DNA from: a virus
Lineage: Duplodnaviria; Heunggongvirae; Uroviricota; Caudoviricetes
Strand: one strand, 5' to 3'
Length of the DNA stretch: 15,276 nucleotides
IMG/VR virus record: IMGVR_UViG_2687453449_000002
Under the pieces are notes generated by a model. It worked only from the letters and a program-made list of their open reading frames with translations, was not told the DNA's origin and did no database searches. Positions 1-13,992 of this stretch are shown here, one piece after another. The number at the start of each line of letters is the position of its first letter. Position 1 is the stretch's first letter. A program made the translations under genes and the position numbers.

Positions 1-822
1 TCAGCAGATATCCCGCCAGCACCAGCAACGCTTCGTAGAAGCCATTAAACACCAGTAGGCCAGTTCGTCATCCAGTGTTTTCCATGTCTGCTTGTATTCG
101 CGATGAATGGCAGCAATGACCGGGCTGATTTTTCCTGTTGAATTTTCAGTGTACTGTTGATTGGCTCTGGCGCGGGCGAGATCAACAACAGACGTGTATT
201 TTCCGGTTTCCTTGCGTTCACCTTCGCGACGTTTTTTCCAGATGCGCATCTCTGCCTGAATTTCGGGCCATTTAGCACCAGGAATACATTTATGCTTAAC
301 CCACCCAATGGCGTGCAACTTAAGCTCCGGATACATGGCGTTAACTTCTGGCATTTTCATCAACGCTTCAACGATATGTCCGTCGAATGTTGCCATGTCT
401 TCCTGCAACAATTCCTGTGCGCTAATAACCATATCAACGGTGATGTTTTCACATGTGTCGAACTTAACCATGACAGCGTTCTGTACTTCAGGGGCCAGCT
501 TGTCAAAAGTGACGTTCATCGGATCGGATTCAGTCTCAACCGGGACAAAAGAAGCAGACTCCTCATCCCAGCGGTTTTCCTGCATATATTCAGCATCCCA
601 TGAATCGAGGGCAGGGCGGGGTATGCCAGGTTTATCCTCGCAGACAATAAATTTATAAGCGCAGTCCTGAGCAGCCGGATAATGTTCCAGGAACTGCCAG
701 TGAAATTTTGCTCGAGCACGGCGTTCGTCGCCAGCTTCAATGGCTGTGGCTACAGCCACAGCGCCTTCTTCCCTTGTTGCCAGTTCGTCAGGAATAGCGG
801 CGCAAATAAAGACTTTACTCAT
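1..822 (-). CDS. Prophage protein of unknown function, last gene of the dicB operon in this window (ydfE position)
   Basis: Complete 273-aa ORF (stop at 1-3, ATG at 820-822) with GAGG about 10 nt upstream; follows ydfD on the same strand. Assigned by position only, not by sequence recognition. Confidence 0.65.
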   Translation of the reverse strand: MSKVFICAAIPDELATREEGAVAVATAIEAGDERRARAKFHWQFLEHYPAAQDCAYKFIVCEDKPGIPRPALDSWDAEYMQENRWDEESASFVPVETESDPMNVTFDKLAPEVQNAVMVKFDTCENITVDMVISAQELLQEDMATFDGHIVEALMKMPEVNAMYPELKLHAIGWVKHKCIPGAKWPEIQAEMRIWKKRREGERKETGKYTSVVDLARARANQQYTENSTGKISPVIAAIHREYKQTWKTLDDELAYWCLMASTKRCWCWRDIC

Positions 823-915
823 TTTGTTTTAACCTCATGACAGATTTAAGGATGAACAAATCCCTGCCATTGCTGGCATATAAGAATGAAACCGGATATT
901 TATTACGGAACTGTT

Positions 916-1107
916 TTAAAGACCTGCCGGGATTTCGATATTATCCTGGTGAATAACTTTATCGACCGGGTAACAGTTACCGGGAATTTTCTGTTCGGTT
1001 GCTGCAGTCATACACTCCTGCATTGTCCTGTGAACACTGTCTGCAATATCAACTGGCTCTCCGGAAACAAGAAAAACTGTCAGAACAAGCGCAAATGCTG
1101 AATTCAT
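916..1107 (-). CDS. ydfD: Small membrane/lysis protein YdfD-like (63 aa)
   Basis: Internal start MNSAFALVLTVFLVSGEP... within the 81-aa track ORF gives a 63-aa protein with a hydrophobic N-terminus; its ATG overlaps the dicB stop in an ATGA arrangement (1104-1107), indicating translational coupling. Confidence 0.6.
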   Translation of the reverse strand: MNSAFALVLTVFLVSGEPVDIADSVHRTMQECMTAATEQKIPGNCYPVDKVIHQDNIEIPAGL

Positions 1108-1292
1108 TGTGTACATCCTTTTGGCATCAGACGTAAACGAGCCAGCATTGAAACAATGCATATTTTATTTAATAGCTCCCGTTCTTGTTTTCTCTTGTTA
1201 ATGGCATCTTCAGTAAATACAGGGTTACTGATAGTGACACCAATTTCAAAACAACCTTCAGACGTATTAACGTTTGGTAATAACGTTTTCAT
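1104..1292 (-). CDS. dicB: Cell division inhibitor DicB (62 aa)
   Basis: Internal start of the 97-aa track ORF gives MKTLLPNVNTSEGCFEIGVTISNPVFTEDAINKRKQERELLNKICIVSMLARLRLMPKGCTQ, recognised as DicB; GAGGA Shine-Dalgarno 7 nt upstream; lies downstream of DicF as in Qin. Confidence 0.9.
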   Translation of the reverse strand: MKTLLPNVNTSEGCFEIGVTISNPVFTEDAINKRKQERELLNKICIVSMLARLRLMPKGCTQ

Positions 1293-1461
1293 TATCGCGT
1301 CCTCAACAATGAATTTTGTGATGCAGTGCCTGGTGCCTCCAGGTGACGTTAACCAGTTAACAATTAACGCCGGATACAGAGAATCCACCCATAACACTGT
1401 TTTTGGTTTTAACTGTTCCGCGTGCGCTTAGCCGCATTCACCGCATCACAAAATTCACTTT

Positions 1462-1519
1462 AAAAACGGCGGCAGAGCAGTCACGGAGTAAAACTGATAC
1501 CGCCAAACGTCACCAGAAA
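1462..1519 (-). ncRNA. dicF: DicF small regulatory RNA (ftsZ-targeting), with its intrinsic terminator
   Basis: Minus-strand sequence tttctggtgacgtttggcggtatcagttttactccgtgactgctctgccgccgttttt matches the remembered DicF sRNA, including a GC-rich 3' hairpin plus T-run; located between the upstream ORFs and dicB. Confidence 0.85.
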
Positions 1520-1794
1520 ATTGATAACAGAGGGCGTTGCAGCGGGGTTGTCACTTAAGCGTATGGTCAACCTGACAACTCGGTGTCCTCAACGGGGAAG
1601 GAATAACCCCGCCATACTTACCGCCGCGCCATTTCGCGGGTTGCCACAACCGGAAGCGCACGGTCGAATTAAATTTAACGACACCGTACAGTGAGACGAA
1701 CTTCGCCGTGCGCTTTCGTGTTGTGTGCCTGCTTTTAACCACGTCAGGCGAGGTGGTATCCTTCTTATCCCGAATAACCAAGAAGGAAATCTAT

Positions 1795-1995
1795 ATGACT
1801 AAAGAAGAATTTGTCTCTTATATTTTTGATAAAACGGTTGAAATGTATGCCGCTACTTACGGGTCCTGTAATCCTCTGAATAAACCAGAGGGGAAAGATG
1901 ATTTCGACAAAATTTACCGCTTCTTGGAGGACCGCTATATCAAAAGGTTAGAGGACGCAGGGATCAAATCCCCAGTGAAGTCACCATTGTCCTGA
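1795..1995 (+). CDS. Hypothetical 66-aa protein encoded antisense to the dicB operon (uncertain)
   Basis: ATG at 1795 preceded by AGAAGGAAAT Shine-Dalgarno (5-nt spacer); AT-rich codon usage; its 3' end overlaps the convergent 125-aa ORF by about 32 bp. Confidence 0.3.
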   Translation: MTKEEFVSYIFDKTVEMYAATYGSCNPLNKPEGKDDFDKIYRFLEDRYIKRLEDAGIKSPVKSPLS

Positions 1996-2341
1996 GAACT
2001 TGCAGGACGTCATGATCGTAACTTCCATCCAAACCGCGACGGCAAATTGCTTCTCGTATTACCGGAAGCAGTTCGCTGGAAATCTCGGTGCATATTTCAC
2101 CTGATAATACGCCTGGCTCAAGTGAGAATATTGGTGAACTTACGGTCTTGGTCTCGACAGTTTCAGAGTCAGTGCCAACATTATAAAGCTCAACGAAAGC
2201 GGTCTTGATTTTCCGGGCCAGATCTTTTGCTGGCTCGCTTGCAATATCTTTCCCGATTTCTCGCAGCACAGAATGCAATGTATGAGCTGCTGTTTTCTGT
2301 ACATCAGACGGTAAATCTTTAAATTCCATCGTCAGCCTCAT
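1964..2341 (-). CDS. Hypothetical 125-aa protein of the dicB operon (ydfB/ydfC position)
   Basis: ORF MRLTMEFKDLPSDVQ... whose ATG overlaps the ydfA stop (ATGA at 2339-2343); co-directional with dicA, ydfA and dicB. Confidence 0.6.
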   Translation of the reverse strand: MRLTMEFKDLPSDVQKTAAHTLHSVLREIGKDIASEPAKDLARKIKTAFVELYNVGTDSETVETKTVSSPIFSLEPGVLSGEICTEISSELLPVIREAICRRGLDGSYDHDVLQVLRTMVTSLGI

Positions 2342-2493
2342 CAGTCAGTGTTTCTGGCTAACCAGCAACGCGCGCCAGATTCGGTTTTAAACGTTTTGCT
2401 TTTGGTATATGTCATCGCGGTGAACGTACCGTCCTGGTTGGGGAACACGCCACATACCAGAGATTCGCTGTTGCCAAGATCGATAGTATCCAT
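2341..2493 (-). CDS. ydfA: Small protein YdfA-like (50 aa)
   Basis: Internal start MDTIDLGNSESLVCGVFPNQDGTFTAMTYTKSKTFKTESGARCWLARNTD with GAGG 6 nt upstream; first gene after dicA on the same strand, as in Qin. Confidence 0.7.
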   Translation of the reverse strand: MDTIDLGNSESLVCGVFPNQDGTFTAMTYTKSKTFKTESGARCWLARNTD

Positions 2494-2605
2494 GCTGACC
2501 TCATTTCCCCTTAACGCCGGGGTAGCGGAACTGTTTGCTGAGAACACCGTGCGGTGTCTTGATGGAAAGTAATTTAGAATAACCTAACATGAGAGGCAAG
2601 TGTTT

Positions 2606-2627
2606 TTTGTTAGATTGATCTAACAAA
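2606..2627. promoter_or_regulatory. Operator-like palindrome in the dicB-operon promoter region (putative DicA site)
   Basis: Perfect inverted repeat tttgttagat-tg-atctaacaaa sharing the core GTTAGA-N4-TCTAAC with two sites in the dicA/dicC intergenic region; lies between the dicA stop and the ydfA start. Confidence 0.6.
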
Positions 2628-2661
2628 AAGGGTGGGCGCAACTAATCACTTGAAAAGAATG

Positions 2662-3069
2662 TTATTTTATTGATTTATTTTTACGCGCTTTAAGCATTTC
2701 TTCGAAGAGTTTGTTGAAGTTTTCTACTCTTGCGCGCATTTCAGACAGCAAGGCTTCCTGCTCGGAAGATGGAAGAGCATCGAATAATTCGATCAATTCT
2801 TTGTGGTTGGGAGTTAGCTCTGTTTCCACATGAAGTTCTTGTGCAGGCACTGGTGCCTTGTCTTCGTCACCAAACATTAGCCATGTAGGTGAGCACTTCA
2901 GAGCATCCGCTAAAGCAAACAATCGTTTTCCGACTGGCTGGGTTTCGTCTCTTTCCCATTGTGAAATTGTGACGTGAGCAACTCCAGCGAGGCGCGCAGC
3001 TTCTCGTTGTGTTAAGCGTAATTCTTTTCGTCGCGCCAGAACTCGCTGGCCTAGGGTTCTTGTATCCAT
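2662..3069 (-). CDS. dicA: HTH-XRE repressor DicA (cI-like), 135 aa
   Basis: N-terminal HTH (LRLTQREAARLAGVAHVTISQWERDETQP), the C-terminal segment MRARVENFNKLFEEMLKAR remembered from DicA, correct length, and divergent from a cro-like dicC. Confidence 0.85.
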   Translation of the reverse strand: MDTRTLGQRVLARRKELRLTQREAARLAGVAHVTISQWERDETQPVGKRLFALADALKCSPTWLMFGDEDKAPVPAQELHVETELTPNHKELIELFDALPSSEQEALLSEMRARVENFNKLFEEMLKARKNKSIK

Positions 3070-3149
3070 AGTTAGGTAATTCTAATTTTTCTTGACTTAG
3101 GTATCCCGCGCACAATAATGTTAGAAAAGTCTAACAAGAGGGGGCTTTG
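3070..3149. promoter_or_regulatory. dicA/dicC divergent promoter-operator region
   Basis: Two palindromes GTTAGG-taat-TCTAAT (3071-3086) and GTTAGA-aaag-TCTAAC (3120-3135); rightward promoter candidate TTGACT (3092-3097), 16-17 bp spacer, AATAAT/ATAATG (3114-3120), the second palindrome overlapping the -10/+1; GAGGGGG Shine-Dalgarno before dicC. Confidence 0.65.
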
Positions 3150-3377
3150 ATGCTTAAAGTTGACGCAATTACTTTTTTTGGCAGCAAAACAAAGCTTGCC
3201 AATGCCGCAGGAGTGAGACTGGCAAGTGTTGCTGCTTGGGGGATACTGGTTCCTGAAGGTCGCGCGATGCGTCTACAGGAGGCATCTGGCGGGGAGCTTC
3301 AGTATGATCCCAAAGTTTATGACGAATATCGTAAGACGAAGCGGGCGGGGCGGTTGAACAATGAAAATCACTCCTGA
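3150..3377 (+). CDS. dicC: Cro-like regulator DicC (75 aa from the ATG; the track ORF begins 3 nt earlier at TTG)
   Basis: MLKVDAITFFGSKTKLANAAGVRLASVAAWG...RLQEASGGELQYDPKVYDEYRKTKRAGRLNNENHS, recognised as DicC-like; divergent from dicA; Shine-Dalgarno 6 nt upstream of the ATG at 3150. Confidence 0.8.
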   Translation: MLKVDAITFFGSKTKLANAAGVRLASVAAWGILVPEGRAMRLQEASGGELQYDPKVYDEYRKTKRAGRLNNENHS

Positions 3378-3882
3378 ACAGGCTCGTGAGGCTCTGGATG
3401 CCTGGATATGTCGACCAGGAATGACACAGGAGCAGGCGACGATATTAATCACTGAAGCATTCTGGGCTTTGAAAGAGCGCCCGAACATCGATGTTCAGCG
3501 TGTCACATATGAAGGTGGCGCGGTTGATCAGCGAGCGCTTAGCGTTAATCGAGTGAAGATATTCGAACGCTGGAAGGCTATCGACACCAGGGATAAGCGT
3601 GAAAAGTTCACAGCGCTAGTGCCTGCAATTATGGAGGCTATCCGGATTAGTGATTTCAGGTTGTATCGTGAGATCAGTGATGGAAAAAGTATTACGTACA
3701 TGATCGCCGGGTTAAATAAAGAATATGGCGATGTGGTGGAATCCGGACTGCTTTTTGCAGATCCTGCCGTTGTAGATCGTGAAACTGACGAACTTATAGA
3801 AAAAGCAATTGCTTTCAAGCTTGCGTATCGACAGCAATACCAACAAAAAGCTGGATGGAATTATGAGTCTTCTTTTTGCTGA
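3361..3882 (+). CDS. cII-position early protein, possibly YdaT-family (173 aa)
   Basis: ORF immediately after the cro-like gene, with its start overlapping the dicC 3' end; family assignment is by position and weak recollection only. Confidence 0.5.
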   Translation: MKITPEQAREALDAWICRPGMTQEQATILITEAFWALKERPNIDVQRVTYEGGAVDQRALSVNRVKIFERWKAIDTRDKREKFTALVPAIMEAIRISDFRLYREISDGKSITYMIAGLNKEYGDVVESGLLFADPAVVDRETDELIEKAIAFKLAYRQQYQQKAGWNYESSFC

Positions 3883-4828
3883 ACGCCCACTGGTTATAAA
3901 CACGCAGCTGGCAATGAAAATCGGCTTAAACGAAGCCATTGTTTTGCAACAACTGCACTACTGGTTGAGAGATACCAACTCCGGTATGGAATGTGATGGT
4001 GTTCGCTGGATTTATAACACAACGGAACAATGGCTGGAACAGTTCCCATTCTGGTCAGAGTCAACGTTAAAGCGCGCGTTTGCAAGTCTGAAAACGCTGG
4101 GGCTTTTGCGTTGTGAAAAGCTCAATAAATCAAAGCGCGATATGACCAATTTCTACACGATCAACTATGGGAGCGAGCTTTTAGATGGTGGCAAATTGAA
4201 CGAATCCATCGGTTCAAAATGCGCCGCTCCATCAGGTCAAAATGACACGATGGAAGAGGTCAAAATGAAACGCTCCATTGGTTCAAAACGATCCAATGTC
4301 ATCGGGTCAAAATGGCCTGATGATCTTACAGAGAATACAACAGAGATTACTACAGAGAATAAAAACACTTTTCGTCCGGAAGCTTCGCAACCGGACCCGC
4401 AGACGACTGAACAGGATTTTTTAACCCGGAACTCCGACGCGGTTGTGTTTAGTGCGAAAAAACGCCAGTGGGGTAGCAGGGAGGATTTGGCGTGTGCGCA
4501 GTGGATCTGGGGGCGGATCGTGGGTCTCTACGAACAGGCAGCCAGTGATGATGGCGAGATCATGCGACCAAAAGAGCCTAACTGGACTGCCTGGGCCAAT
4601 GACGTGCGCACAATGCGGATGCTGGATGGCAGAAGCCACAGACAAATTTGCGAAATGTTTGGTCGGGTTCAGCGAGATCCATTCTGGGTAAAAAACATCA
4701 TGAGCCCGTCAAAGCTCCGCGAAAAATGGGACGAACTGGTCATCCGCCTGGGACGTTCACCTGTACAGCGTTGTGTTAATCATATTTCTGAACCGGATAC
4801 AGAAATTCCGCCTGGTTTCAGAGGATAA
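3863..4828 (+). CDS. Phage replication initiation protein (lambda O / YdaU-like replisome organiser), 321 aa
   Basis: N-terminal domain resembling replisome-organiser HTH (LNEAIVLQQLHYWLRDT...STLKRAFASLKTLGLLR), a central linker encoded by iteron DNA, and a distinct C-terminal domain; start chosen at ATG 3863 (MSLLFAERP), overlapping the upstream stop by 20 nt. Confidence 0.7.
   Translation: MSLLFAERPLVINTQLAMKIGLNEAIVLQQLHYWLRDTNSGMECDGVRWIYNTTEQWLEQFPFWSESTLKRAFASLKTLGLLRCEKLNKSKRDMTNFYTINYGSELLDGGKLNESIGSKCAAPSGQNDTMEEVKMKRSIGSKRSNVIGSKWPDDLTENTTEITTENKNTFRPEASQPDPQTTEQDFLTRNSDAVVFSAKKRQWGSREDLACAQWIWGRIVGLYEQAASDDGEIMRPKEPNWTAWANDVRTMRMLDGRSHRQICEMFGRVQRDPFWVKNIMSPSKLREKWDELVIRLGRSPVQRCVNHISEPDTEIPPGFRG
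4204..4314 (+). repeat. Five direct iterons (putative prophage replication origin) inside the replication initiator gene
   Basis: Core GGT(T)CAAAA(T/C)G ending at 4221, 4244, 4267, 4290 and 4314 (23-24 bp periodicity), several with a TCCATC prefix; followed by an A-rich ACAGAGA-repeat stretch (4315-4365); encodes IGSK peptide repeats. Confidence 0.65.
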
Positions 4829-4868
4829 GTGTTGATTTCAGGTCATGAGGTAATTTTAAGGGGGAGTT

Positions 4869-5291
4869 GTGGCAAAAGTTTTTACACAAGAAGAGCGGGA
4901 AAAAATTAAAGGGCAGGTGGTGGAACTCGTGCGCCAGAGCGGTCGTGAGACGTTACGGCAACTGGAAGCTAAAACAGGTGCGACTAGATATCTGATGAGC
5001 GTTCTTGCCAGAGAGCTGGTAGCCAGTGGCGATGTATACAACTCCGGCTACGGGTTATTCCCGTCTGAACAGGCGCGTAAGGACTGGCAAAACGCCCGCA
5101 AAAAACTCTCGAGGGCAAAGGTGAAGAAACCTGCTGTGGTTGATCCGGACCTTATCTGGTCATTACCTGATGGAGAAATACGCCGCTACGACAGTCGTCT
5201 AAACATAATCTGTCGCGAGTGCCGGAAGAGCGAAGTTATGCAGCGTGTTCTGACGTTTTATCAGGGGAATTATCGGGAGGTGATGCTGTGA
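4869..5291 (+). CDS. Hypothetical 140-aa protein, possible winged-helix DNA-binding protein
   Basis: GTG start at 4869 preceded by AAGGGGGAG Shine-Dalgarno; coherent ORF MAKVFTQEEREKIKGQVVELVRQSGRETLRQLEAKTGATRYLMSVLARELV...; no family recognised. Confidence 0.55.
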   Translation: MAKVFTQEEREKIKGQVVELVRQSGRETLRQLEAKTGATRYLMSVLARELVASGDVYNSGYGLFPSEQARKDWQNARKKLSRAKVKKPAVVDPDLIWSLPDGEIRRYDSRLNIICRECRKSEVMQRVLTFYQGNYREVML

Positions 5292-5521
5292 GTACATCGG
5301 CTACCATTCTCGACATGTGCTGTGGCAGTCGCATGCTCTGGTTCGATAAGAATGACGAATGGTCGATATTTAGCGATATCAGGAAAGAGGAACATTCGCT
5401 ATGTGATGGACGTCACCCGATTATTAATCCCGACATTATAGCTGATTTTCGTGCGCTGCCGTGGTTGTCTGCTTTGCATCAAAAGCAGACATTACCAGAT
5501 TTAGACATCTGTTTCCGATAG
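5288..5521 (+). CDS. Short ORF (77 aa from GTG 5288) with a SAM-methyltransferase motif-I-like segment; possible gene fragment
   Basis: GTGA start/stop overlap with the 140-aa ORF; contains [15 protein letters not shown], resembling the glycine-rich SAM-binding motif; too short for a complete methyltransferase. Confidence 0.3.
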
Positions 5522-5553
5522 CCCGTTCTGATGCTACACTTTTTGCTATTTTC

Positions 5554-6240
5554 ATGAACCTCATAAACACATTTATGACTGTTGCTGATTTCAAACGCCC
5601 CAAATTGGAGCTCCCAAACGGGGCAAAAAAACTATTACTGCACTCTTGCTGTGCTCCATGTTCCGGTGAAGTGATGGAGGCGCTTCAGGCCTCGGGAATC
5701 GACTACACCATCTTTTTCTACAACCCGAACATTCATCCTCAGAAAGAGTATTTAATTCGTAAGGATGAGAATATTCGCTTTGCTAAACAACACGGCGTGC
5801 CATTTATTGATGCTGATTACGACACAGACAACTGGTTTGAGCGAGCCAAAGGAATGGAATGGGAGCCTGAACGAGGGATCCGTTGTACCATGTGTTTTGA
5901 CATGCGTTTTGAGCGGACTGCGCTGTATGCCGCTGAAAATGGTTTCAGTGTGATCAGTAGCTCACTGGGCATTTCACGCTGGAAAAATATGCAGCAGGTT
6001 AACGACTGTGGACGGCGAGCCGTCGCGTATTATCCGGGCATGGTGTACTGGGATTATAACTGGCGAAAGCAGGGCGGCTCTTCCCGCATGATTGAAATCA
6101 GCAAGCGCGAACAATTCTATCAGCAGGAATATTGTGGCTGCGTGTATTCACTGCGCGATACCAATCTACACCGCAAATCTCAGGGACGCCCTCTAATCAA
6201 AATTGGTCAACTCCACTACGGTAAAGAAGGCCAGGAATGA
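5554..6240 (+). CDS. queH: QueH-family (DUF208) epoxyqueuosine reductase-like protein; start uncertain (GTG 5461, ATG 5554 or ATG 5575)
   Basis: Hallmark [13 protein letters not shown] near the N-terminus and EYCGCVYS near the C-terminus, consistent with the cysteine motifs of DUF208/QueH as remembered; about 220-260 aa; no clear Shine-Dalgarno at any candidate start. Confidence 0.65.
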
Positions 6241-6320
6241 TTTTATATTATGCCAACGGAGCGTAGCAGTGTTTCTATATATAGTACGCCTACCTTAATT
6301 TTCAAATAATCATGATTAAT

Positions 6321-6353
6321 GAGCAGGTCATCAGTGCAAGCAATGACCTGCTC
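6321..6353 (+). terminator. Hairpin downstream of the queH-like gene (possible terminator or processing site)
   Basis: 11-bp perfect stem gagcaggtcat / atgacctgctc with an 11-nt loop, followed by a weak T-containing tail (atcttgttg). Confidence 0.4.
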
Positions 6354-6687
6354 ATCTTGTTGAAATTAGAGGAAATCTTGCAGCCATGATATGGCTTAAA
6401 ATAACGTTTGATTATTTTACCTGCTGTTTGTCCCTGGTTTAAAGTCGGTTGTCTGATTTGATTACGCGCAACTGACGCTTACGTATTGAAGTAACGAGCA
6501 CGAAGACACATATTTATCAGTGCCTGTATACGTCAAGAGCAGGAGATTTATGTGCTGGTTCTCAAATGCACGCTGGCTATTGTGGCTGTAATGGCAATTT
6601 ATTGTCTTGTTATTGTTCTTATGGATCACCTTTCTGATTGATTTCATATTGGAGAGGTAACGGTAGTTAAGTAGAATGGCTGCGGGT

Positions 6688-6852
6688 GCTTGAGGCTATC
6701 TGCCTCGGGCATGAACACCAACGGCAGATAGAGAAAAGCCCCAGTTAACATTACGCGTCCTGCAAGACGCTTAACATTAATCTGAGGCCAATTTCATGCT
6801 AGACACATGTAGGTTAGCCTCTTACGTGCCGAAAGGCAAGGAGAAGCAGGCT
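6688..6852 (+). promoter_or_regulatory. hok mRNA 5' leader with tac/ucb-like elements and an in-frame mok-like upstream start (6796)
   Basis: Sequence ggtgcttgaggctatctgcctc...ggcagatagagaaaagcccc...agcctcttac...gcaaggagaag resembles the conserved structured leader of hok-family mRNAs. Confidence 0.5.
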
Positions 6853-7008
6853 ATGAAGCAGCAAAAGGCGATGTTAATCGCCCTGATCGTCATCTGTTTA
6901 ACCGTCATAGTGACGGCACTGGTAACGAGGAAAGACCTCTGCGAGGTACGAATCCGAACCGGCCAGACGGAGGTCGCTGTCTTCACAGCTTACGAACCTG
7001 AGGAGTAA
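6853..7008 (+). CDS. hokD: Hok-family type I toxin (51 aa), HokD/RelF-like
   Basis: MKQQKAMLIALIVICLTVIVTALVTRKDLCEVRIRTGQTEVAVFTAYEPEE: single transmembrane helix and conserved Hok C-terminus; AAGGAGAAG Shine-Dalgarno upstream. Confidence 0.9.
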   Translation: MKQQKAMLIALIVICLTVIVTALVTRKDLCEVRIRTGQTEVAVFTAYEPEE

Positions 7009-7076
7009 GAGACCCGGCGAGGGAGAAATCCCTCGCCACCTCTGATGTGGCAGGCATCCTCAACGCACTCGCACTT

Positions 7077-7100
7077 AACCCGCTTCGGCGGGTTTTTGTT
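7077..7100 (+). terminator. Rho-independent terminator at the hok mRNA 3' end
   Basis: Stem aacccgc / gcgggtt with ttcg loop, followed by tttttgtttttatttt; preceded by a fold-back-like segment (catcctcaacgcac) partly complementary to the 5' leader. Confidence 0.8.
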
Positions 7101-7224
7101 TTTATTTTCAACGCGTTTGAAGTTCTGGACGGTGCCGGAATAGAATCAAAAATACTTAAGTAGCGCGCAGGGATAAGAGGGATGGTCCCTTAAAGGGGAG
7201 AGCTAATTATCCGGAAGGATTCTG

Positions 7225-7476
7225 ATGATGAACATCGAAGAACTGCGTAAAAATTTTTGTGAAGATGGCCTCTATGCTGTGTGCGTTGAAAATGGAAATC
7301 TTGTTAGTCATTACCGCATTATGTGTTTGCGAAAGAATGGGGCTGCGTTAATTAATTTTGTGGATGGTCGAGTGACAGACGGATTTATCTTGCGCGAAGG
7401 TGAGTTTGTCACTTCATTACAGGCACTGAAAGAGATCGGAATAAAAGCAGGCTTTTCAGCTTTTGCAGAAGAATAA
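7225..7476 (+). CDS. rem: Rem-like small prophage protein (83 aa)
   Basis: MMNIEELRKNFCEDGLYAVCVENGNLVSHYRIMCLRKNGAALINFVDG...; GGAAGGA Shine-Dalgarno; lies directly downstream of hok as rem does relative to hokD in Qin. Confidence 0.7.
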   Translation: MMNIEELRKNFCEDGLYAVCVENGNLVSHYRIMCLRKNGAALINFVDGRVTDGFILREGEFVTSLQALKEIGIKAGFSAFAEE

Positions 7477-7542
7477 ACTCATCTACAATCTTGCGCGGGG
7501 CTGAACTCCCGCTGAGTAACACCGTGCCACCGGAGAAAACCG

Positions 7543-7821
7543 ATGGCACGCAACGTAAAATATTACAATTCTGATAATTCGCCCGTTCTTGTCTGCACGC
7601 ACGAGCGGTATTCTCACGCATTCAAGTCTGAATGGTTCCAACACCCTCCATGCACTGAAGAGCAGGCTGAATGGATAATTCAGTGTTACCGCAGGCGCGG
7701 ATACGAGGTTAAGAAAGCCCTTAGTCTCGACTACCGTCACTGGATAATCTCAGTCAGATTGCCTTACTCCGAACGCCCACCGCGTCCGTCCCGTACATTC
7801 CAGCAACGCATCTGGAGGTAA
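7543..7821 (+). CDS. Hypothetical 92-aa protein; the C-terminal third may be out-of-context sequence at a deletion junction
   Basis: ATG preceded by GGAG; N-terminal 70 aa look protein-like (MARNVKYYNSDNSPVLVCTHERYSHAFKSEWFQHPPCTEEQAEWIIQCYRRRGYEV...), the tail is Pro/Arg-rich; same frame as the downstream lom fragment, separated from it by one stop. Confidence 0.4.
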   Translation: MARNVKYYNSDNSPVLVCTHERYSHAFKSEWFQHPPCTEEQAEWIIQCYRRRGYEVKKALSLDYRHWIISVRLPYSERPPRPSRTFQQRIWR

Positions 7822-8097
7822 CGTGCGGGTATTACTTCGACCTGTTCTGGTATGGCTTACAGCCGTGTGTCGACCTTCTCCGGGGATTATCTCCGCGTAA
7901 CTGACAACAAGGGGAAAACGCACGATGTGCTGACCGGAAGTGATGACGGTCGCCACAGCAACACGTCTCTGGCGTGGGGGGCTGGCGTGCAGTTTAACCC
8001 GACCGAATCCGTGGCCATTGACCTTGCTTATGAAGGTTCCGGCAGTGGTGACTGGCGCACTGACGGTTTCATCGTGGGTGTCGGTTATAAATTCTGA
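7822..8097 (+). pseudogene. lom: lom (Ail/Lom outer-membrane protein) 3' fragment lacking the N-terminal half
   Basis: Encodes ...SLAWGAGVQFNPTESVAIDLAYEGSGSGDWRTDGFIVGVGYKF, matching the C-terminal beta-strands of Lom/Ail/PagC; no signal peptide or N-terminal barrel portion upstream. Confidence 0.7.
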
Positions 8098-8123
8098 TTA
8101 GCCAGGTAACACAGTGTTATGAC

Positions 8124-8150
8124 AGCCCGCCGGTTCAGGCGGGCTTTTTT
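8124..8150 (+). terminator. Rho-independent terminator between the lom remnant and stf
   Basis: Stem agcccgcc / ggcgggct with a 6-nt loop, followed by tttttt. Confidence 0.8.
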
Positions 8151-8161
8151 GTGGAGTGGAT

Positions 8162-10540
8162 ATGGCAGCAGTAAAAATCTCAGGTGTGCTGAAAGATGGT
8201 GCGGGAAAACCAATACAGAACTGCACTATTCAACTGAAGGCAAAGCGTAACAGCACCACGGTACTGGTGAACACGGTAGCCTCTGAAAATCCGGATGAAG
8301 CCGGGCGTTACAGCATGGATGTCGAGTATGGCCAGTACAGCGTCACCCTGCTGGTTGAAGGTTTTCCGCCTTCACATGCCGGAACCATTACCGTCTATGA
8401 AGGTTCCAGACCTGGTACGCTGAATGATTTTCTCGGTGCCATGACGGAAGATGATGTCATGCCGGAGGCATTGCGTCGTTTTGAGGCAATGGTGGAAGAA
8501 GCAGCACGCAACGCTGAAGCCGCCTCTCAGAGCGCAGCGGCAGCAAAGAAATCAGAAACAGCAGCGGCATCATCGAAGAACGCGGCGAAAACCTCAGAAA
8601 CGCATGCAGCTAACAGCGCACAGGCGGCAGCGGCCTCGCAGACTGCATCGGCAAACTCCGCGACAGCAGCTAAAAAATCAGAAAACAACGCGAAAAATAG
8701 CGAGACAGCAGCAAAGACGAGCGAAACCAACGCAAAGTCCAGCCAGGCGGCAGCGAAAACAAGCGAAACGAATGCCAAAACCAGTGAAACTGCGGCGAAA
8801 AGCAGTCAGGCTGCAGCAGCCGAAAGCGAGAGTGCGGCAGCCGGTTCTGCGACTTCAGCAGCTGGATCAGCAACTGCTGCAGCTAACAGCCAGAAAGCAG
8901 CGAAGACGAGCGAAACTAACGCAAAGTCCAGCCAGACGGCAGCGAAGACCAGCGAAACGAATGCCAAAGCCAGCGAAACTGCGGCGAAAAACAGTCAGGA
9001 TGCAGCGGCCCAAAGCGAGAGTGCCGCAGCTGGTTCTGCAAGTGCGGCGGCTTCTTCTGCCACTGCATCAGCCAACAGTCAAAAAGCTGCAAAAACCAGT
9101 GAAACCAACGCAAAGGCGAGCGAGACTGCGGCGGCTAACTCGGCGAAAGCATCCGCTGCAAGCCAGACGGCTGCAAAAGCAAGTGAAGACGCAGCCAGAG
9201 AGTATGCAAGCCAGGCTGCGGAGCCGTATAAACAAGTTTTGCAGCCGCTTCCCGATGTGTGGATACCGTTTAACGATTCACTGGATATGCTTGCTGGCTT
9301 TTCGCCTGGTTATAAGCAAATAACTGTAGGTGATGATGTTATTAAAATGCCATCCGATAAGGTTGTTAGCTTCAAACGCGCATCAGGTGCAACATACATT
9401 AATAAATCAGGAGTATTAACCGTTGCTGAAGTTGACGAACCGCGATTTGAACGAGAAGGTTTGCTGATTGAAGGACAAAGAACCAACTATCATCTTAATT
9501 CACTTACGCCATCTAAGTGGGGAGCTACAACAAGTGTAACTATAACAGAAAGTGGTGTTGATGAGTTTGGCTTTACTTATGGGCGGTTTCAAATAAAGGA
9601 CGAAAAAATTGGGACAAATACGACAATGAATATCGCTGCGGTTTCAGGAGGAAGAGGTGTCGATGTTACTGGAACTGAAAAGTATGTTACAACATCATGT
9701 CGTGTAAAAAGCGATAGTGCTAATATACAATGTCGTATAAGATTTGAAAGATATGACGGGTCCGCATATTTTTATCTGGCAGATGCATATCTTAATATAA
9801 CAGATATGTCCATTAGGAAAACGGGAGGAGGGGCTGCAAGAATAACCGCCCGAGCGGAGAAAGAATCTAATGGATGGATTTATTTCGAGGTTACATATCA
9901 ATCTGAAGCTATTGATAATATGGTTGGCTCTCAGATCCAAATTGCTCCACCTGTTTCACCTGGAACTTATTTGGGCGGGGAATATTTGGATGTTACGACA
10001 CCACAATTTGAAGGCGGCTCATGCGCATCATCTTTTATCATTTCCGATACAGTTGCATCAACGCGAGCAAGCGATATTGTTACATTGCCTTGTAAAAATA
10101 ACATGGCCAGCAAACCTTTAACCTGCATGGTTGAAGTGAATAAAAATTGGTCTATAGCACCAAATTCCGCGCCTAGAATTTATGATATAACAGGATTTAA
10201 AACAAAAGACGACGCTTTTGTTTTTGCATTCAGAAATACAGCAGGTAGTGTAGGAACTCCATATGTTCAATTTGGTAATCCAATATCATTTCCACCTGGA
10301 AATTACCCAAGAAAGATTATCGCTGTATATAGAATAAAAAGCGATGGCAAGTTTCAGGCTGGCTGCAATGGGGTTTTATCAACACCAGCATCAACAACGT
10401 GGAAGAGTGTTAGTGGTGCTACAGGTATAAGGATTGGAGGCCAGACTACAGCCGGCTTACGTCATTTATTTGGTTATATCAGGAATTTTAGAATATGGCA
10501 TAAAGAATTAACCGATGCGCAAATGGGAGAGATAATATAA
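8162..10540 (+). CDS. Side tail fibre protein (Stf), mosaic: lambda-Stf-like N-terminal domain, Ala/Ser/Thr repeat shaft, divergent AT-rich C-terminal receptor-binding region (792 aa from ATG 8162)
   Basis: N-terminus MAAVKISGVLKDGAGKPIQNCTIQLKAKRNSTTVLVNTVASENPDEAGRYSMDVEYGQYSV... matches the remembered lambda Stf N-terminus; GGAG Shine-Dalgarno before ATG 8162 (the track ORF starts at GTG 8156); C-terminal end ...FGYIRNFRIWHKELTDAQMGEII resembles a LamG/ConA-like lectin domain. Confidence 0.9.
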   Translation: MAAVKISGVLKDGAGKPIQNCTIQLKAKRNSTTVLVNTVASENPDEAGRYSMDVEYGQYSVTLLVEGFPPSHAGTITVYEGSRPGTLNDFLGAMTEDDVMPEALRRFEAMVEEAARNAEAASQSAAAAKKSETAAASSKNAAKTSETHAANSAQAAAASQTASANSATAAKKSENNAKNSETAAKTSETNAKSSQAAAKTSETNAKTSETAAKSSQAAAAESESAAAGSATSAAGSATAAANSQKAAKTSETNAKSSQTAAKTSETNAKASETAAKNSQDAAAQSESAAAGSASAAASSATASANSQKAAKTSETNAKASETAAANSAKASAASQTAAKASEDAAREYASQAAEPYKQVLQPLPDVWIPFNDSLDMLAGFSPGYKQITVGDDVIKMPSDKVVSFKRASGATYINKSGVLTVAEVDEPRFEREGLLIEGQRTNYHLNSLTPSKWGATTSVTITESGVDEFGFTYGRFQIKDEKIGTNTTMNIAAVSGGRGVDVTGTEKYVTTSCRVKSDSANIQCRIRFERYDGSAYFYLADAYLNITDMSIRKTGGGAARITARAEKESNGWIYFEVTYQSEAIDNMVGSQIQIAPPVSPGTYLGGEYLDVTTPQFEGGSCASSFIISDTVASTRASDIVTLPCKNNMASKPLTCMVEVNKNWSIAPNSAPRIYDITGFKTKDDAFVFAFRNTAGSVGTPYVQFGNPISFPPGNYPRKIIAVYRIKSDGKFQAGCNGVLSTPASTTWKSVSGATGIRIGGQTTAGLRHLFGYIRNFRIWHKELTDAQMGEII
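8700..9200 (+). repeat. About 2.5 imperfect tandem copies of a ~189-bp (63-codon) unit within the stf shaft region
   Basis: Repeat starts near 8707, 8897 and 9083; encodes AAKTSETNAKSSQ...AAAGSA...ANSQK units; also creates spurious long ORFs in other frames. Confidence 0.8.
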
Positions 10541-10821
10541 TGCGAGATTTAATTATCAAATTCACAGACAAGGCCGACTTTTCGGCCTTTATGAAGAGTG
10601 CTGGCTATTATGATGACGAGTCGATGCAGGATGATATTCTTATTGACGTGATAGGTAACGTGTACAAAGAAACCGGAGAACTTACTGAAGATGGCGAGCC
10701 GGTATGTGTTAAGGAAGACGGATATTTTGTAAACGTGCGCATCATTAATGATGCAAAAAAATCGTCAATATTCGATAAATACGCGGTTGTTGTTGAGCAT
10801 CAACTTCGTGGCTGGATGTGA
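10540..10821 (+). CDS. Hypothetical acidic 93-aa protein downstream of stf (possible tail fibre accessory protein)
   Basis: ATG overlaps the stf stop (TAATG); AT-rich like the stf 3' region, suggesting co-acquisition; no family recognised. Confidence 0.5.
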   Translation: MRDLIIKFTDKADFSAFMKSAGYYDDESMQDDILIDVIGNVYKETGELTEDGEPVCVKEDGYFVNVRIINDAKKSSIFDKYAVVVEHQLRGWM

Positions 10822-10830
10822 GGCAGGAAA

Positions 10831-11535
10831 ATGGCTACATCGACAGTAATTCCAGGAGATATCACCAAGCTAAAGGGGGATGTCAGTAAAGCTAAGGAAG
10901 ATATTTCATCAATTAGCAGAAAAGTATCAACGCTTCAGACTGAGATGACCAGTGCAAAGCAGGATATCAGCTCCAGATACACAAAAACTGAAGTTGATAA
11001 TAAGCTGAAAAACAAAGTGGAAGTGAACGATCTGGAAAGTGGTCGTTATGGCGGAGATTTTTATCCACTGACAGGTCGTGAAGCGTTTTATTTATGGAAT
11101 TTGGCCACGACTACAGCGGCGGCAAACCTTTATCTTAATCCTGACCCTGCAATTTCGTCTGTGCTGCGGTCAACATCGTCTATCCGCTATAAACATTCAG
11201 TAGAGACAATAGATTCAGAGCACGCCGATCTCATTTTCAGGATGCGCCCTGTGTGGTACAGGTCGCAATGCGAAAATGACAGGCGTGACTGGGGATTCTA
11301 CGGATTGATTGCCGAGGAAGTAGGAGAAATTGCTCCTCAGTTTGTACACTGGCGACCAGCTAACGAAGATGATGCTCCTGAAGCTATTTCCAGCAATGGC
11401 CTTGTTGCCGAAGGTGTAATGTACGAACGTCTGGTTGTTCCACTGATTCACCATATCCAGAAACTGACTGAAAGAGTTGATGAACTTGAGTCAGAATTAA
11501 AGTTGTTATTAACTTCCCGAAGCGATATTAGATAA
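10831..11535 (+). CDS. 234-aa protein with a C-terminal peptidase-S74-like intramolecular chaperone domain and an N-terminal coiled-coil-like segment
   Basis: C-terminal half ...SSIRYKHSVETIDSEHADLIFRMRPVWY...GFYGLIAEEVGEIAPQFV...LVAEGVMYERLVVPLIHHIQKLTERVDELESELK fits the remembered S74 pattern (Ser ... Lys dyad, GxIAQEV-like motif, terminal helix); GAGG Shine-Dalgarno 7 nt upstream. Confidence 0.6.
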   Translation: MATSTVIPGDITKLKGDVSKAKEDISSISRKVSTLQTEMTSAKQDISSRYTKTEVDNKLKNKVEVNDLESGRYGGDFYPLTGREAFYLWNLATTTAAANLYLNPDPAISSVLRSTSSIRYKHSVETIDSEHADLIFRMRPVWYRSQCENDRRDWGFYGLIAEEVGEIAPQFVHWRPANEDDAPEAISSNGLVAEGVMYERLVVPLIHHIQKLTERVDELESELKLLLTSRSDIR

Positions 11536-11545
11536 AGGAGGAGTA

Positions 11546-11839
11546 ATGGATATAACACCTTTTCTTCATGCGCTTTGTGCTGTGGCTGCGCAGACACTGG
11601 TTGGTCTTTTTACCGGAAACTGGGCTTATGGGGCGATAGCTGGTTGTACGTTCTTCATTGCGCGTGAACACACCCAGGCAGAATATCGCTGGATTGAAAT
11701 GTTCGGGCATGGCAAGCGGATTAACATGCCGTGGTGGGGCGGTTTTGATCCGCGTGTTTGGGATGTGGCAAGCCTGATGGATTTTGCTGTGCCGGTGGTG
11801 GCGTGTCTGCTGATCTGGCTGTTGGTTAATCGTGGGTGA
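11546..11839 (+). CDS. Hypothetical 97-aa hydrophobic protein, probably membrane-associated
   Basis: Strong AAGGAGG Shine-Dalgarno immediately upstream; two hydrophobic stretches (ALCAVAAQTLVGLF and FAVPVVACLLIWLLV). Confidence 0.6.
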   Translation: MDITPFLHALCAVAAQTLVGLFTGNWAYGAIAGCTFFIAREHTQAEYRWIEMFGHGKRINMPWWGGFDPRVWDVASLMDFAVPVVACLLIWLLVNRG

Positions 11840-11849
11840 AAAAAGGTGA

Positions 11850-11969
11850 GCTGTATATGCAACGGAGGAAGAAACCCCGTTGCTGGAAGCCAGGAAAAAG
11901 TATCGGGTGTTGCTGAACCGTGTTGATACGTCAACTGCACAGGATATTGAATGGCCAGCACTGCCGTAG
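11850..11969 (+). pseudogene. tfa: 3' remnant (last ~39 codons) of a tail fibre assembly gene (tfa)
   Basis: Frame encodes [39 protein letters not shown]-stop, matching the conserved C-terminus of Tfa/Mu U-type assembly proteins; no start codon or N-terminal region; sits right before the pin 3' end. Confidence 0.7.
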
Positions 11970-12066
11970 GGTAAAACATATAAATTCTATAATTAGATGT
12001 ATCTTTCCATTTACGGCAAGGAAGGGGGCTTGGAAGACGTAAAGCATCTCACACCGAGATTATTTT

Positions 12067-12657
12067 TTATATGTCAGGTGTCTGAAGTTTTGCTTTGGCT
12101 CTTAAAATGGTTTGCCGCGAGGTTTTGAATTCCCGGGCAATGGCACTTATACTTACACCTGACTTAATCCGTTCGAATACCACCTGTTTCTGTTCTTCAT
12201 TTAACACAGGTGGTCGACCAAAACGTTTCCCTGCGCCCCGGGCTCTTACTATCCCGGAATGAGTGCGTTCAAGTAAAAGGTCTCGTTCAAATTCAGCGAC
12301 TGCTGAAATTACTTGCATCATCATTTTTCCTGTTGGACTGGTCAGGTCAATGCCCCCCAATGCTAAGCAATGCACTCTGATACCTGTTTCGGTCAGTTGT
12401 TCCACTGTTTTCCTGATATCCATTGCATTACAACCAAGGCGATCCAATTTTGTCACAATCAATTGATCACCACATTTCAGGCGAGCAAGCAACCGGTTAA
12501 AACCAGGACGCTCACTGGTTGCTGCTGAGCCGCTAATGTGTTCTTCGATTATTTGCTGAGGTTTGATTTTAAAACCTGCACTTTCGATTTCCCGGCGTTG
12601 ATTTTCGGTGGTCTGATCCAGCGTTGATATCCGACAGTAAGCAAAAATTCGAGACAT
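12067..12657 (-). CDS. pinQ: Serine recombinase, Pin-family DNA invertase (196 aa)
   Basis: [20 protein letters not shown]... with the catalytic Ser in YCRISTLDQ, a resolvase/invertase catalytic core and a C-terminal HTH ([17 protein letters not shown]); convergent with stf/tfa, as in Qin and Rac. Confidence 0.9.
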
Positions 12658-12704
12658 AGTGAGACTCTATACGAAATTGGTGTTCATATCATAATGCATC
12701 TCAG

Positions 12705-12724
12705 AAAATAATTTTGATTATTTT
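12705..12724. promoter_or_regulatory. AT-rich inverted repeat in the pin upstream region (function unknown)
   Basis: aaaataat-tttg-attatttt, perfect 8-bp arms, about 50 bp upstream of the pin start codon. Confidence 0.3.
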
Positions 12725-12973
12725 TGTGCATATTTGTATGTACACGTTCGAAAATAAACGAATGCGTATGCAACCCCGTAATTTTGGTGAGACCCAAAAT
12801 CGATTTTGTGAAAAATGGCTTTAACTCGGTTTGTTTTTCGAGTTCCAGGCGGACTCAAGGAAGAAGAATAGTGTTGCGTGTTATTTTAACCAGATTTCAA
12901 GTTGTTTGGTCGTGGAAAAGTGGAGCAAAATGTTGTTAAAGTGGAAAAATGATAAAAAAGTAAGTTAATTATA

Positions 12974-13207
12974 TTACATTTTACCATTTAAATTTTGGTT
13001 GTCTTTAAGAACTGATATCGCTGTTTGTAATAATTCTTTGTTATCCAGCCATGATTTTTTCTTTATGTTTCCTTCAATGTAATCAAGCAATGTTCTGGTA
13101 TTGATAGGTCTTCCCTGTTTTGCTACTTCCACTACAGCATCCCCTAGGATAATTCTTACTTCAGGAAGCTGCGCAGGGAACCACTTTAGGGTGTCTTTTG
13201 ATTTCAT
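12974..13207 (-). CDS. ydfK: YdfK/YnaE-type small prophage protein (77 aa)
   Basis: Internal start MKSKDTLKWFPAQLPEVRIILGDAVVEVAKQGRPINTRTLLDYIEGNIKKKSWLDNKELLQTAISVLKDNQNLNGKM with AAGGAA Shine-Dalgarno; adjacent to pin and ydfJ as in Qin. Confidence 0.8.
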   Translation of the reverse strand: MKSKDTLKWFPAQLPEVRIILGDAVVEVAKQGRPINTRTLLDYIEGNIKKKSWLDNKELLQTAISVLKDNQNLNGKM

Positions 13208-13992
13208 GAAGATATTCCTTAAAATATTATTGATTTTCATTGCGATATTGTATGTCTGATTCAGAATATGTTGACTTATACATCGGTTTTGTCTGGGTTA
13301 TTGGATATGCCAATCCCTAATTTTATTAGGGCATGACTAAAAATGCTGAATATGATAAGGAGAGAAGTGATTATCAGTATGCTGTTCATATAGCCTCGAA
13401 TTATTAATGTGTTATATATGATATAGTTGACGATTTTTATCTTGGGTGTTCTTAAAGTTCGTAGATAAACATTGTCGTTTCAGGTATACAGGAATGCTAA
13501 CAGGTGGCAGCAAAAATCAGGCGGTTTATGGCGCAAGCTGAAGCGGCAACTGCAAACTATCTTATGCAGAGACTCTACACGGATTGGGTTTAAAAGTATA
13601 CATAGATAACAGTTTTTATCTGAAGAAGAAAAATATCAAGGTGATATAGCCTATATGCCTTTGATGCGGAGGAATGAATGTGATGGGAGTGATGTATCTG
13701 AATAGTTGAAAAACCGCAGACACGCCTTATGCAAGAACGTGCTGCGGTTGGCTGGTAAATTTTTCGATAGTGTGTGTATTGAATGATTTCCAGCCGTTCT
13801 TGATTTTACGCATAAATCCATGAAAAAACCACTTATCTGTTGGGGAGTTTTTTTGGGGCATATATGGGACAGAAATAGGCCCCAGATAGACACTGAGATC
13901 GAACTCAGGATGCTTTTTAAAAAATGCAACTATCTGAAAAAACCTAGAAAACGCCAAGGGAACCACAGGATGGGAAAAAACACCTGTGAATT

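Follow-up and report, generated by a model that had tools for sequence, protein, structure and literature searches.

A tfa 3' remnant and a pin gene of apparent Tn3-family origin at the border of the tail-fibre cassette of a Qin-type prophage

Results

Features at the right border of the tail-fibre genes

The IMG/VR virus record IMGVR_UViG_2687453449_000002 comprises 15,276 nt of DNA, the whole of which was analyzed and is referred to below as the window. At the right border of its tail-fibre genes lies the 3' end of a tail-fibre assembly gene (tfa), followed by pin, a convergent gene for a small serine recombinase. An earlier note on this DNA had proposed that a cassette replaced part of the fibre genes and that Pin is an invertase possibly orphaned by this event. 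The following features were identified between the last cassette gene and ydfK:

11859-11969, + strand: tfa 3' remnant, a module-junction scar in which 11858-11909 is cassette-linked and the sequence from 11910 onward is of Qin/Rac type
12019-12023, no strand: AGGAA, left copy of the target-site duplication (5 bp); the same pentamer stands directly outside both repeats and extends to 7 bp, CAAGGAA
12024-12058, + strand: Tn3-family terminal inverted repeat on the tnpR side, degenerate, 27/38 against the perfect repeat GGGGTCCGCTTGGAAAACGGAAAATATCCCACGCTAAG
12067-12657, - strand: pinQ, tnpR-type small serine recombinase (196 aa, Ser11 present), with Pfam Resolvase and HTH_7 domains and Cys76
12668-12770, - strand: res homologue with three dyads (III, 12668-12686; II, 12699-12730; I, 12745-12770), overlapping the pin promoter region
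12793-12810, no strand: palindrome CCCAAAATCGATTTTGTG, situated in the linker that separates the res homologue from the res-side repeat; unique in the window, 0/200 shuffles
12820-12857, - strand: Tn3-family terminal inverted repeat on the res side, degenerate, 25/38 ungapped, in opposite orientation, its outer end facing ydfK
12858-12862, no strand: AGGAA, right copy of the target-site duplication (5 bp), directly outside the res-side repeat

The segment 9200-13300 is 100% identical to a Qin-type prophage of E. coli B-lineage strains (B, BL21, REL606, C41/C43 and others), where it forms the right end of the prophage and adjoins a truncated ydfJ; each of the top 20 E. coli matches to it is one collinear piece with 100% coverage. 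The RefSeq order in this segment is stf, a hypothetical gene (93 aa), a 'tail fiber domain-containing protein' (234 aa), a second hypothetical gene (97 aa) and an incomplete tfa, after which pinQ, ydfK and ynfT follow on the opposite strand.

The tfa remnant marks a module junction

Homology to K-12 tfaQ and tfaR begins exactly at 11858, with the last 112 nt of these genes, as alignment to both confirmed, and the DNA identity to K-12 from this point through pin and ydfK is 98.7-98.9%. The translated remnant comprises 36 codons and a stop (111 nt) and matches the Pfam family Caudo_TAP at profile positions 95-130 of 131 only (E 6e-14). The earlier note was right that a Tfa-type 3' end is present, as the profile match and the tfaQ/tfaR homology indicate, but its count of ~39 codons was too high: an in-frame TGA at 11847-11849 shuts the frame, so that 36 homologous codons remain of the 191 codons of a full-length tfa. 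As the frame contains no ATG or GTG, no protein is expected from the remnant, which lacks the N-terminal domain and start codon of a full-length lambda-type Tfa of ~190 aa. RefSeq/PGAP already lists this 111-nt stretch of BL21(DE3) and E. coli B as a pseudogene, with the product name 'tail fiber assembly protein, incomplete, missing N-terminus'. It is a pseudogene fragment, derived from the conserved 3' end of a tail-fibre assembly gene of lambda type, and stands directly before the convergent pin gene, as had been described, and pin is intact (12657-12067, minus strand, 196 aa). No terminator-like sites were found between the tfa remnant (tfa') and pin. A match to Rfam RF02111 ('IS009') at 11837-11935 (+) was rejected: it scored 63 bits against a gathering score of 117, and the 3' 70 nt of the model that were matched are the conserved tfa 3' end, with no structure involved.

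Phage records with an identical PinQ split into two layout types. Those of the first type (mEp460_ev081, 2H10, Kati, Turner) carry J-lom-stf-tfa with a full-length tfa and then the convergent pin; those of the second (Tritos, HannyBb) have the layout of the window, that is stf, a 93-aa open reading frame (ORF), a fibre-like ORF, a 97-aa ORF and then pin. By DNA alignment, the junction between the 97-aa ORF (orf97) and TGCAACGG (...GTGAGCTGTATA|TGCAACGGAGGAAG...) is identical in the window, Tritos, phage 21 and PhiR49_1. Counted with HannyBb, it is carried by four phages (phage 21, Tritos, HannyBb, PhiR49_1) and has three different downstream partners: the tfa fragment is followed by pin-ydfK in the window and in Tritos, by a DLP12-like ybcY-tfaX-ompT arm in PhiR49_1 and by sitDCBA in phage 21, where only ~58 nt of tfa are kept. 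An identical junction in several sequenced phages points to an old module boundary and not to local decay. The proposal that a cassette took the place of the distal part of stf and most of tfa is thus borne out in that a foreign cassette, made up of orf93, orf234, orf97 and the part of stf past the N-terminal anchor, stands there relative to Rac/Qin-type relatives; the replacement cannot be read as a local or degenerative event. An out-of-frame ORF of 19 codons (11857-11916, +), with an ATG start and AAGGTGA 8 nt upstream, sits exactly on the orf97|tfa' junction common to phage 21, Tritos and PhiR49_1.

The remnant shows 0 mismatches to phage 21 in 11858-11915, and its 5 mismatches to K-12 tfaQ all fall in 11875-11909, with none in 11910-12066. 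Judged by these alignments, the tfa remnant itself is a chimera. Combined, the shared junction and the chimeric remnant indicate that the conserved tfa 3' end is a recombination linker that was used more than once. The sequence of events would be as follows. A side-fibre cassette of phage-21 type, made up of the stf shaft and tip, orf93, a gene for an S74-domain chaperone and orf97, would have been joined to tfa, leaving the 111-nt 3' end; the resulting orf97|tfa' junction is old and moves together with the cassette. The kept tfa end would then have served as a homology patch through which the cassette recombined onto varied right arms, pin-ydfK in the window, ybcY-ompT in PhiR49_1 and, after a further cut, sitABCD in phage 21. 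Such a linker would mean that whole fibre cassettes, one of them with its own chaperone, are shuffled between phage right arms, which is useful for host-range prediction or engineering.

The fibre modules of phage 21 (OL657228), Tritos, HannyBb and PhiR49_1 resemble that of the window in their order: stf, an ORF of ~93 aa, orf97 and then the same tfa' junction. Phage 21 differs by the absence of an ORF for an S74 chaperone and by its ~58 nt of tfa' before sitD, and Tritos and HannyBb carry a fibre-like ORF of 343-346 aa in place of the 234-aa ORF (orf234) of the window. The receptor-binding part (9501-10433) is also diverged. A second truncated tfa was seen in Kati and Turner (L010, L011 4873-5178; 101 aa in Turner) and in PhiR49_1 (L013 7092-7226), where it adjoins a ybcY-like methyltransferase gene and ompT, that is, a DLP12-type right arm; tfa fragments are recurring scars at several module borders.

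pin and its flanks form a probable Tn3-family element

The Pin protein is 100% identical to K-12 PinR and 99% to PinQ, and shares 39% identity with PinE. Against proteins of solved structure, PinQ scores 105 bits with Gin and 83 with gamma-delta resolvase, whereas PinE scores 312 with Gin. Members of the invertase clade score ~300 bits among themselves, which places PinQ outside it, and the Hin DNA-binding domain is matched by PinE and not by PinQ. Homologues of Pin at 60-85% identity occur in more than 1,600 plasmid records. Two of these proteins (P0014 and P0010) are 83-85% identical to Pin, and each lies 160 bp from, and divergent to, a Tn3-family transposase gene. The neighbour of P0014 is an intact 994-aa transposase in 5 of the 6 contexts shown, with DUF4158 and DDE_Tnp_Tn3 domains and a score of 1193 bits on NF033527 (cut-off 500); that of P0010 is a fragmented tnpA in 3 of 4. 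On these comparisons, Pin is orthologous to the TnpR encoded beside a Tn3-family transposase. A further homologue, in Erwinia phage LS-2018a (61% identity), was set aside, its surroundings being unannotated DNA with no informative repeats.

The flanks of pin fit this assignment. An element of ~834 bp (12024-12857) can be delimited, without tnpA, that consists of a terminal repeat, tnpR (the gene named pin), the res homologue and a second terminal repeat. The tnpR-side repeat turns its outer GGGG toward tfa and lacks 3 nt (TCC); the res-side repeat has a binomial expectation of ~0.004 per window and matches 27/38 positions of the upstream repeat of a comparable tnpA-less element of 852 bp on plasmid pS84-1, laid out as repeat, linker, res, tnpR and repeat. 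Two marks of the Tn3 family, 38-bp terminal repeats of the GGGG...TAAG type and a 5-bp target duplication, are present, the repeats in degenerate form. In the intact elements, the 160-bp spacer between tnpA and tnpR contains TGTCCGAAA...TTTCGGACA dyads, and the dyads of the window stand, drifted, at the matching positions. At site I, the left half is degenerate or lost and matches TGTCCGAAA at only 3/9 positions. A scan of the whole window for TGTCCGAAA-type dyads gave hits at or below the shuffled expectation except for site II, which was itself recovered only at a chance-level stringency, and no second res-like site was found in the window.

Among the closest known systems is the P0014 element itself, a Tn3-family transposon of 3,815 bp on E. 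coli plasmids (L019-L024; tnpA, res, tnpR) with perfect 38-bp repeats and mobile in form. Its tnpR product is 83-85% identical to Pin, and 12028-12737 of the window aligns to it over 712 nt at 82% DNA identity, a stretch that takes in the tnpR-side repeat, all of the gene and the proximal part of res (sites III-II). Both show 5-bp duplications; those of the P0014 element and its variants (TAATA, TTATA, AATAT) come from three independent insertions. The window element differs in that it has no tnpA (tblastn of the 994-aa TnpA against the window returned nothing better than E 2.8), in its degenerate repeats and res site I, and in a Cys at the place of a catalytic Arg. Without tnpA it is non-autonomous and, with such ends and such a replacement, probably immobile. 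TIMEs and mobile insertion cassettes are non-autonomous Tn3 derivatives (PMC4133298, PMC4337579), alike in having Tn3-type repeats around transposase-less DNA and a short flanking duplication; TIMEs are devoid of genes, whereas the window element and the 852-bp pS84-1 element have tnpR and res. The arrangement in the window would be explained if an ancestor of the Rac/Qin-type phages had received the element at a point ~50 bp past tfa.

The K-12 prophages Rac (pinR) and Qin (pinQ) carry the same gene in the same tfa-pin-ydfK/ynaE arrangement, and their terminal-repeat remnants and AGGAA flanks are the same as well. They differ from the window by a full upstream tfaR or tfaQ (191 aa), where the window has 36 codons behind a phage-21-type cassette.

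An empty site, in which the tfa spacer would be joined to the ydfK flank, was found in 0 of 5,426 E. coli complete genomes and likewise in no phage record or viral contig. The single hit in GTDB genomes, in an Omnitrophota metagenome-assembled genome, was discarded, since 596 Gb of sequence should yield about one 20-mer match by chance. A text search with the transposon repeat sequence gave unrelated primer matches only.

Some observations on related elements are added here. The outer flank of the tnpR-side repeat of pS84-1 (L016 4638-4646, AAGGAAGAC) resembles the res-side flank of the window (12857-12866, AAGGAAGAAG), despite abutting the opposite ends of the two elements. Five recombinases (P0004-P0008) are hybrids with an N-terminal half of TnpR type (Arg76) and a C-terminal half of PinQ type, and at one hybrid locus the upstream region is hybrid as well (L025 5830-6010); such hybrids argue for homologous exchange between plasmid-borne transposon copies and prophage pin.

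No inversion switch was found around pin

The hix consensus had no match in the window at up to 3 mismatches, the AAACC-NN-GGTTT core (AAACCNNGGTTT) gave nothing above chance in the window, and the e14 pix arm was not found there above chance. Inverted and direct repeats in 7000-13400 and in 11800-13400 were short, chance-like pairs only, with no gix-like pair among them; the same repeat tool readily recovered the e14 pix pair. All genes of the fibre module lie on the + strand in the window, as they do in six related phages and in Rac and Qin. The absence of an inverted cassette and of gix/hix-like sites noted before is thus upheld, and it extends to pix-like sites and to convincing long-range inverted repeats; the suggestion that Pin may have no local substrate agrees with the absence of a local pair of crossover sites in the window.

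The proposed cause fares differently. An inverted alternative cassette is equally absent from relatives with a full tfa (K-12 Rac and Qin, mEp460_ev081, 2H10, Kati, Turner), so that the cassette swap did not orphan Pin. In the window and in all of these relatives pin is convergent with tfa, whereas pinE reads away from its invertible segment. The Hin/Gin/Cin and e14 PinE systems resemble the window in having a small serine recombinase gene beside phage tail-fibre and tfa genes. However, Mu Gin, P1 Cin, Salmonella Hin and PinE form a tight clade whose genes read away from a segment with inverted 26-bp sites and alternative fibre ends in opposite orientation, and nothing of that kind is present in the window. 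These invertases also depend on an enhancer bound by Fis in the 5' part of the recombinase gene; Fis sites are too degenerate to be recognized from sequence. We therefore give very little credence to the view that Pin is a tail-fibre invertase of the Hin/Gin/Cin/PinE type, orphaned when the cassette destroyed an invertible stf/tfa segment. Its neighbours are those of gin, cin and pinE, several phage records name it 'DNA invertase' and no crossover sites are left, all of which would suit such a loss; the 39% identity to PinE, set against 83-85% to Tn3-family TnpR, the fact that Gin is about as distant from PinQ as gamma-delta resolvase is from PinE, and the Tn3-type repeats, res homologue and target duplication around the gene speak against it, together with the gene orientation and the intact relatives just described. 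As Pin is not of this type, gix-like sites were the wrong target of the search, and phase-variable tail fibres are not to be expected in Rac/Qin-type phages.

A local rearrangement system with unfamiliar sites, for example the palindrome at 12793-12810 and a distant or diverged partner, was also considered and is highly improbable. The palindrome (18 bp) is unique and non-random, it stands in the conserved linker of the mini-element, and lineages differ unusually little in the region upstream of pin. Nevertheless, with up to 3 mismatches allowed, the 15 kb contain no second copy of the palindrome, the top 20 E. coli matches are single collinear pieces, and a BLAST survey across E. coli genomes detected inversions in e14 only and none in Qin or Rac (Kirigo et al. 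2025, PMC12529663). In plasmid pS84-1 the equivalent position is occupied by another dyad. When the window is compared with the P0009 lineage (12650-12830 vs L030 1-175), only ~2% of the 165 nt ahead of pin differ, although the coding dS is 0.23; this low divergence could be due to res/promoter constraint or to recent exchange.

A catalytic arginine is replaced in Pin

The catalytic set of Tn3 resolvase is Y6, R8, S10, D36, R68 and R71. In Pin the residues Y7, R9, S11, E39 and R73 are present and the position of R71 is taken by Cys76, so that the set of a competent serine recombinase is incomplete. Cys76 aligns with R71 of gamma-delta resolvase in the DRLG-R motif. Among twelve relatives aligned, position 76 is Arg in all TnpR-clade proteins, in the Erwinia phage homologue and in PinE, and Cys in the window; PDB alignments place Arg at that position in Gin and gamma-delta resolvase too. 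Cys76 was found in every sequence of the PinQ/PinR lineage that was read (the window, K-12 PinQ and PinR, the large clusters P0001-P0003, and P0009), P0009 being a lineage 85% identical to PinQ and also located beside a full-length tfa. Substitution of R71 in Tn3 resolvase (R71A or R71K) eliminates recombination and makes cleavage ~1,000-fold slower (PMC2794168).

The ratio of nonsynonymous to synonymous divergence (dN/dS) is 0.35 between the two Cys76 lineages and 0.13-0.19 against the TnpR clade. By this measure, selection on pin is relaxed, yet not absent.

Interpretation of the locus

We regard it as likely that two unrelated mosaic events lie side by side at this locus, a tfa junction scar and the remnant of a Tn3-family resolvase element, and that neither is an inversion switch. 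The substrate of Tn3-type resolvases is a cointegrate with two res sites in direct repeat. With one res copy, partly decayed, nothing in the window should invert or delete. Pin would mainly bind its own upstream dyads, as in autoregulation, and may be catalytically weakened by the Cys at the Arg71 position.

Several points weigh against this reading. Both terminal repeats are degenerate (27/38 and 25/38), and as no empty site was found, the transposition event rests on the repeats and the 5-bp duplication. The palindrome at 12793-12810 is unaccounted for. The gene is kept at 99-100% identity in several phage genomes, which, with a dN/dS of 0.35 and not 1, indicates some selected role of the protein. 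Finally, overproduction of PinQ in K-12 was reported to lift inversion of the e14 P segment from ~30% to 88% (PMC12529663), which argues that the protein, its Cys76 and TnpR ancestry notwithstanding, is truly active in catalysis on sites of the invertase type.

The last point bears on a further explanation, that Pin is an active recombinase which acts in trans on invertase-type sites elsewhere in the genome and is kept by the host for that purpose. Kirigo et al. (2025) reported that PinQ does not invert DNA beside itself and flips the P segment of e14 in K-12, an effect lost without e14, stfP or stfE (PMC12529663). The pix half-site TCTCCCAAA is alike at 7/9 positions to the TnpR-clade half-site TGTCCGAAA, and pin is under purifying selection. 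We consider this explanation unlikely, though less so than the two given above. Besides the replacement of the catalytic Arg by Cys, deletion of pinE locks the P segment although pinQ and pinR remain (PMC12529663), so PinQ may act indirectly. The same pin also occurs in free phages, and e14 is not necessarily present in their hosts. The reported trans target, e14, is found in K-12, whereas BL21(DE3) lacks it at icd: there icd is followed directly by iraM (L014 28491-30167), which indicates that in the B lineage the usual e14 site holds neither e14 nor its P segment and that BL21(DE3) is without the only reported trans target at that place.

A more specific form of the Tn3 reading is offered tentatively, and we hold it to be possible but doubtful: pinQ/pinR would be a domesticated Tn3-family resolvase in which Arg71 was changed to Cys before the PinQ/P0009 split, and which lambdoid phages have since retained under purifying selection, either for DNA binding or for weak recombinase activity. 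In that case the activity of the K-12 'PinQ invertase' would be indirect, for instance through binding to pix or partnering with PinE, with no cleavage of its own. The Arg-to-Cys change at a catalytic position is a simple, testable ground on which to re-examine the flipping of the e14 P segment by PinQ.

As it was posed, the finding is ordinary, the pseudogene being already annotated and the missing local substrate of PinQ having been published in 2025. The observations of the earlier note stood, as did its cassette swap and its lack of a local substrate for Pin; the cause and the kind of recombinase that it assigned did not. What is added here, of modest but real interest, is the reclassification of pin as a Tn3-family resolvase remnant without the catalytic arginine. 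Thousands of E. coli genomes and several phage genomes give it the label 'DNA invertase', whereas its ancestry, flanks and nearest relatives are those of a Tn3-family resolvase in a dead mini-transposon; annotation pipelines give the name 'pinR' to Tn3-family resolvases on Klebsiella plasmids. A literature search found no statement of a Tn3 origin of pinR/pinQ, and both this origin and the Arg-to-Cys change appear to have gone unremarked before.

Genes of the fibre cassette

Upstream of the tfa remnant, the cassette consists of four genes, the 93-, 234- and 97-aa ORFs being in accord with the earlier note:

8156-10540, + strand: stf, side tail fibre of phage-21 type (794 aa), with phage_tail_N as its N-terminal anchor, a shaft rich in Ala and, at the C-terminus, a 'head spike fibre'/ConA-like tip
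10540-10821, + strand: orf93, small conserved cassette gene, at the same position in Tritos, HannyBb, phage 21 and PhiR49_1
10831-11535, + strand: orf234, coiled coil and Peptidase_S74 ('chaperone of endosialidase') domain (Pfam PF13884, E 3.9e-6, above cut-off)
11546-11839, + strand: orf97, small membrane protein and last cassette gene, at 92-95% identity in 50 phage records

The stf product matches Pfam PF08400 at residues 5-134 (E 1e-66) as well as NCBIfam NF048003. It is homologous over its full length to the side tail fibre of phage 21 (42% identity, E 0), and the stf 5' end of Rac type is resembled by 7849-8555 only. No Pfam or NCBIfam match was obtained for orf93. The homologue of orf97 in phage 21 is annotated as a membrane protein with two transmembrane domains.

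orf234 is 92-95% identical to ORFs of PhiR49_1, PhiR55_1 and IdasGreatGrand, and ~59% identical to siphovirus genes annotated 'lateral tail fiber chaperone / chaperone of endosialidase'. From its domain content, it is likely a fibre chaperone, and because this domain is of the S74 chaperone type, Tfa may have become dispensable for the cassette.

Collinearity with the B and BL21 assemblies breaks down upstream of ~8.1 kb (window 1-8150); those assemblies hold ~5 kb more. In BL21(DE3) stf is truncated beside an IS3; in the window it is intact (794 aa).

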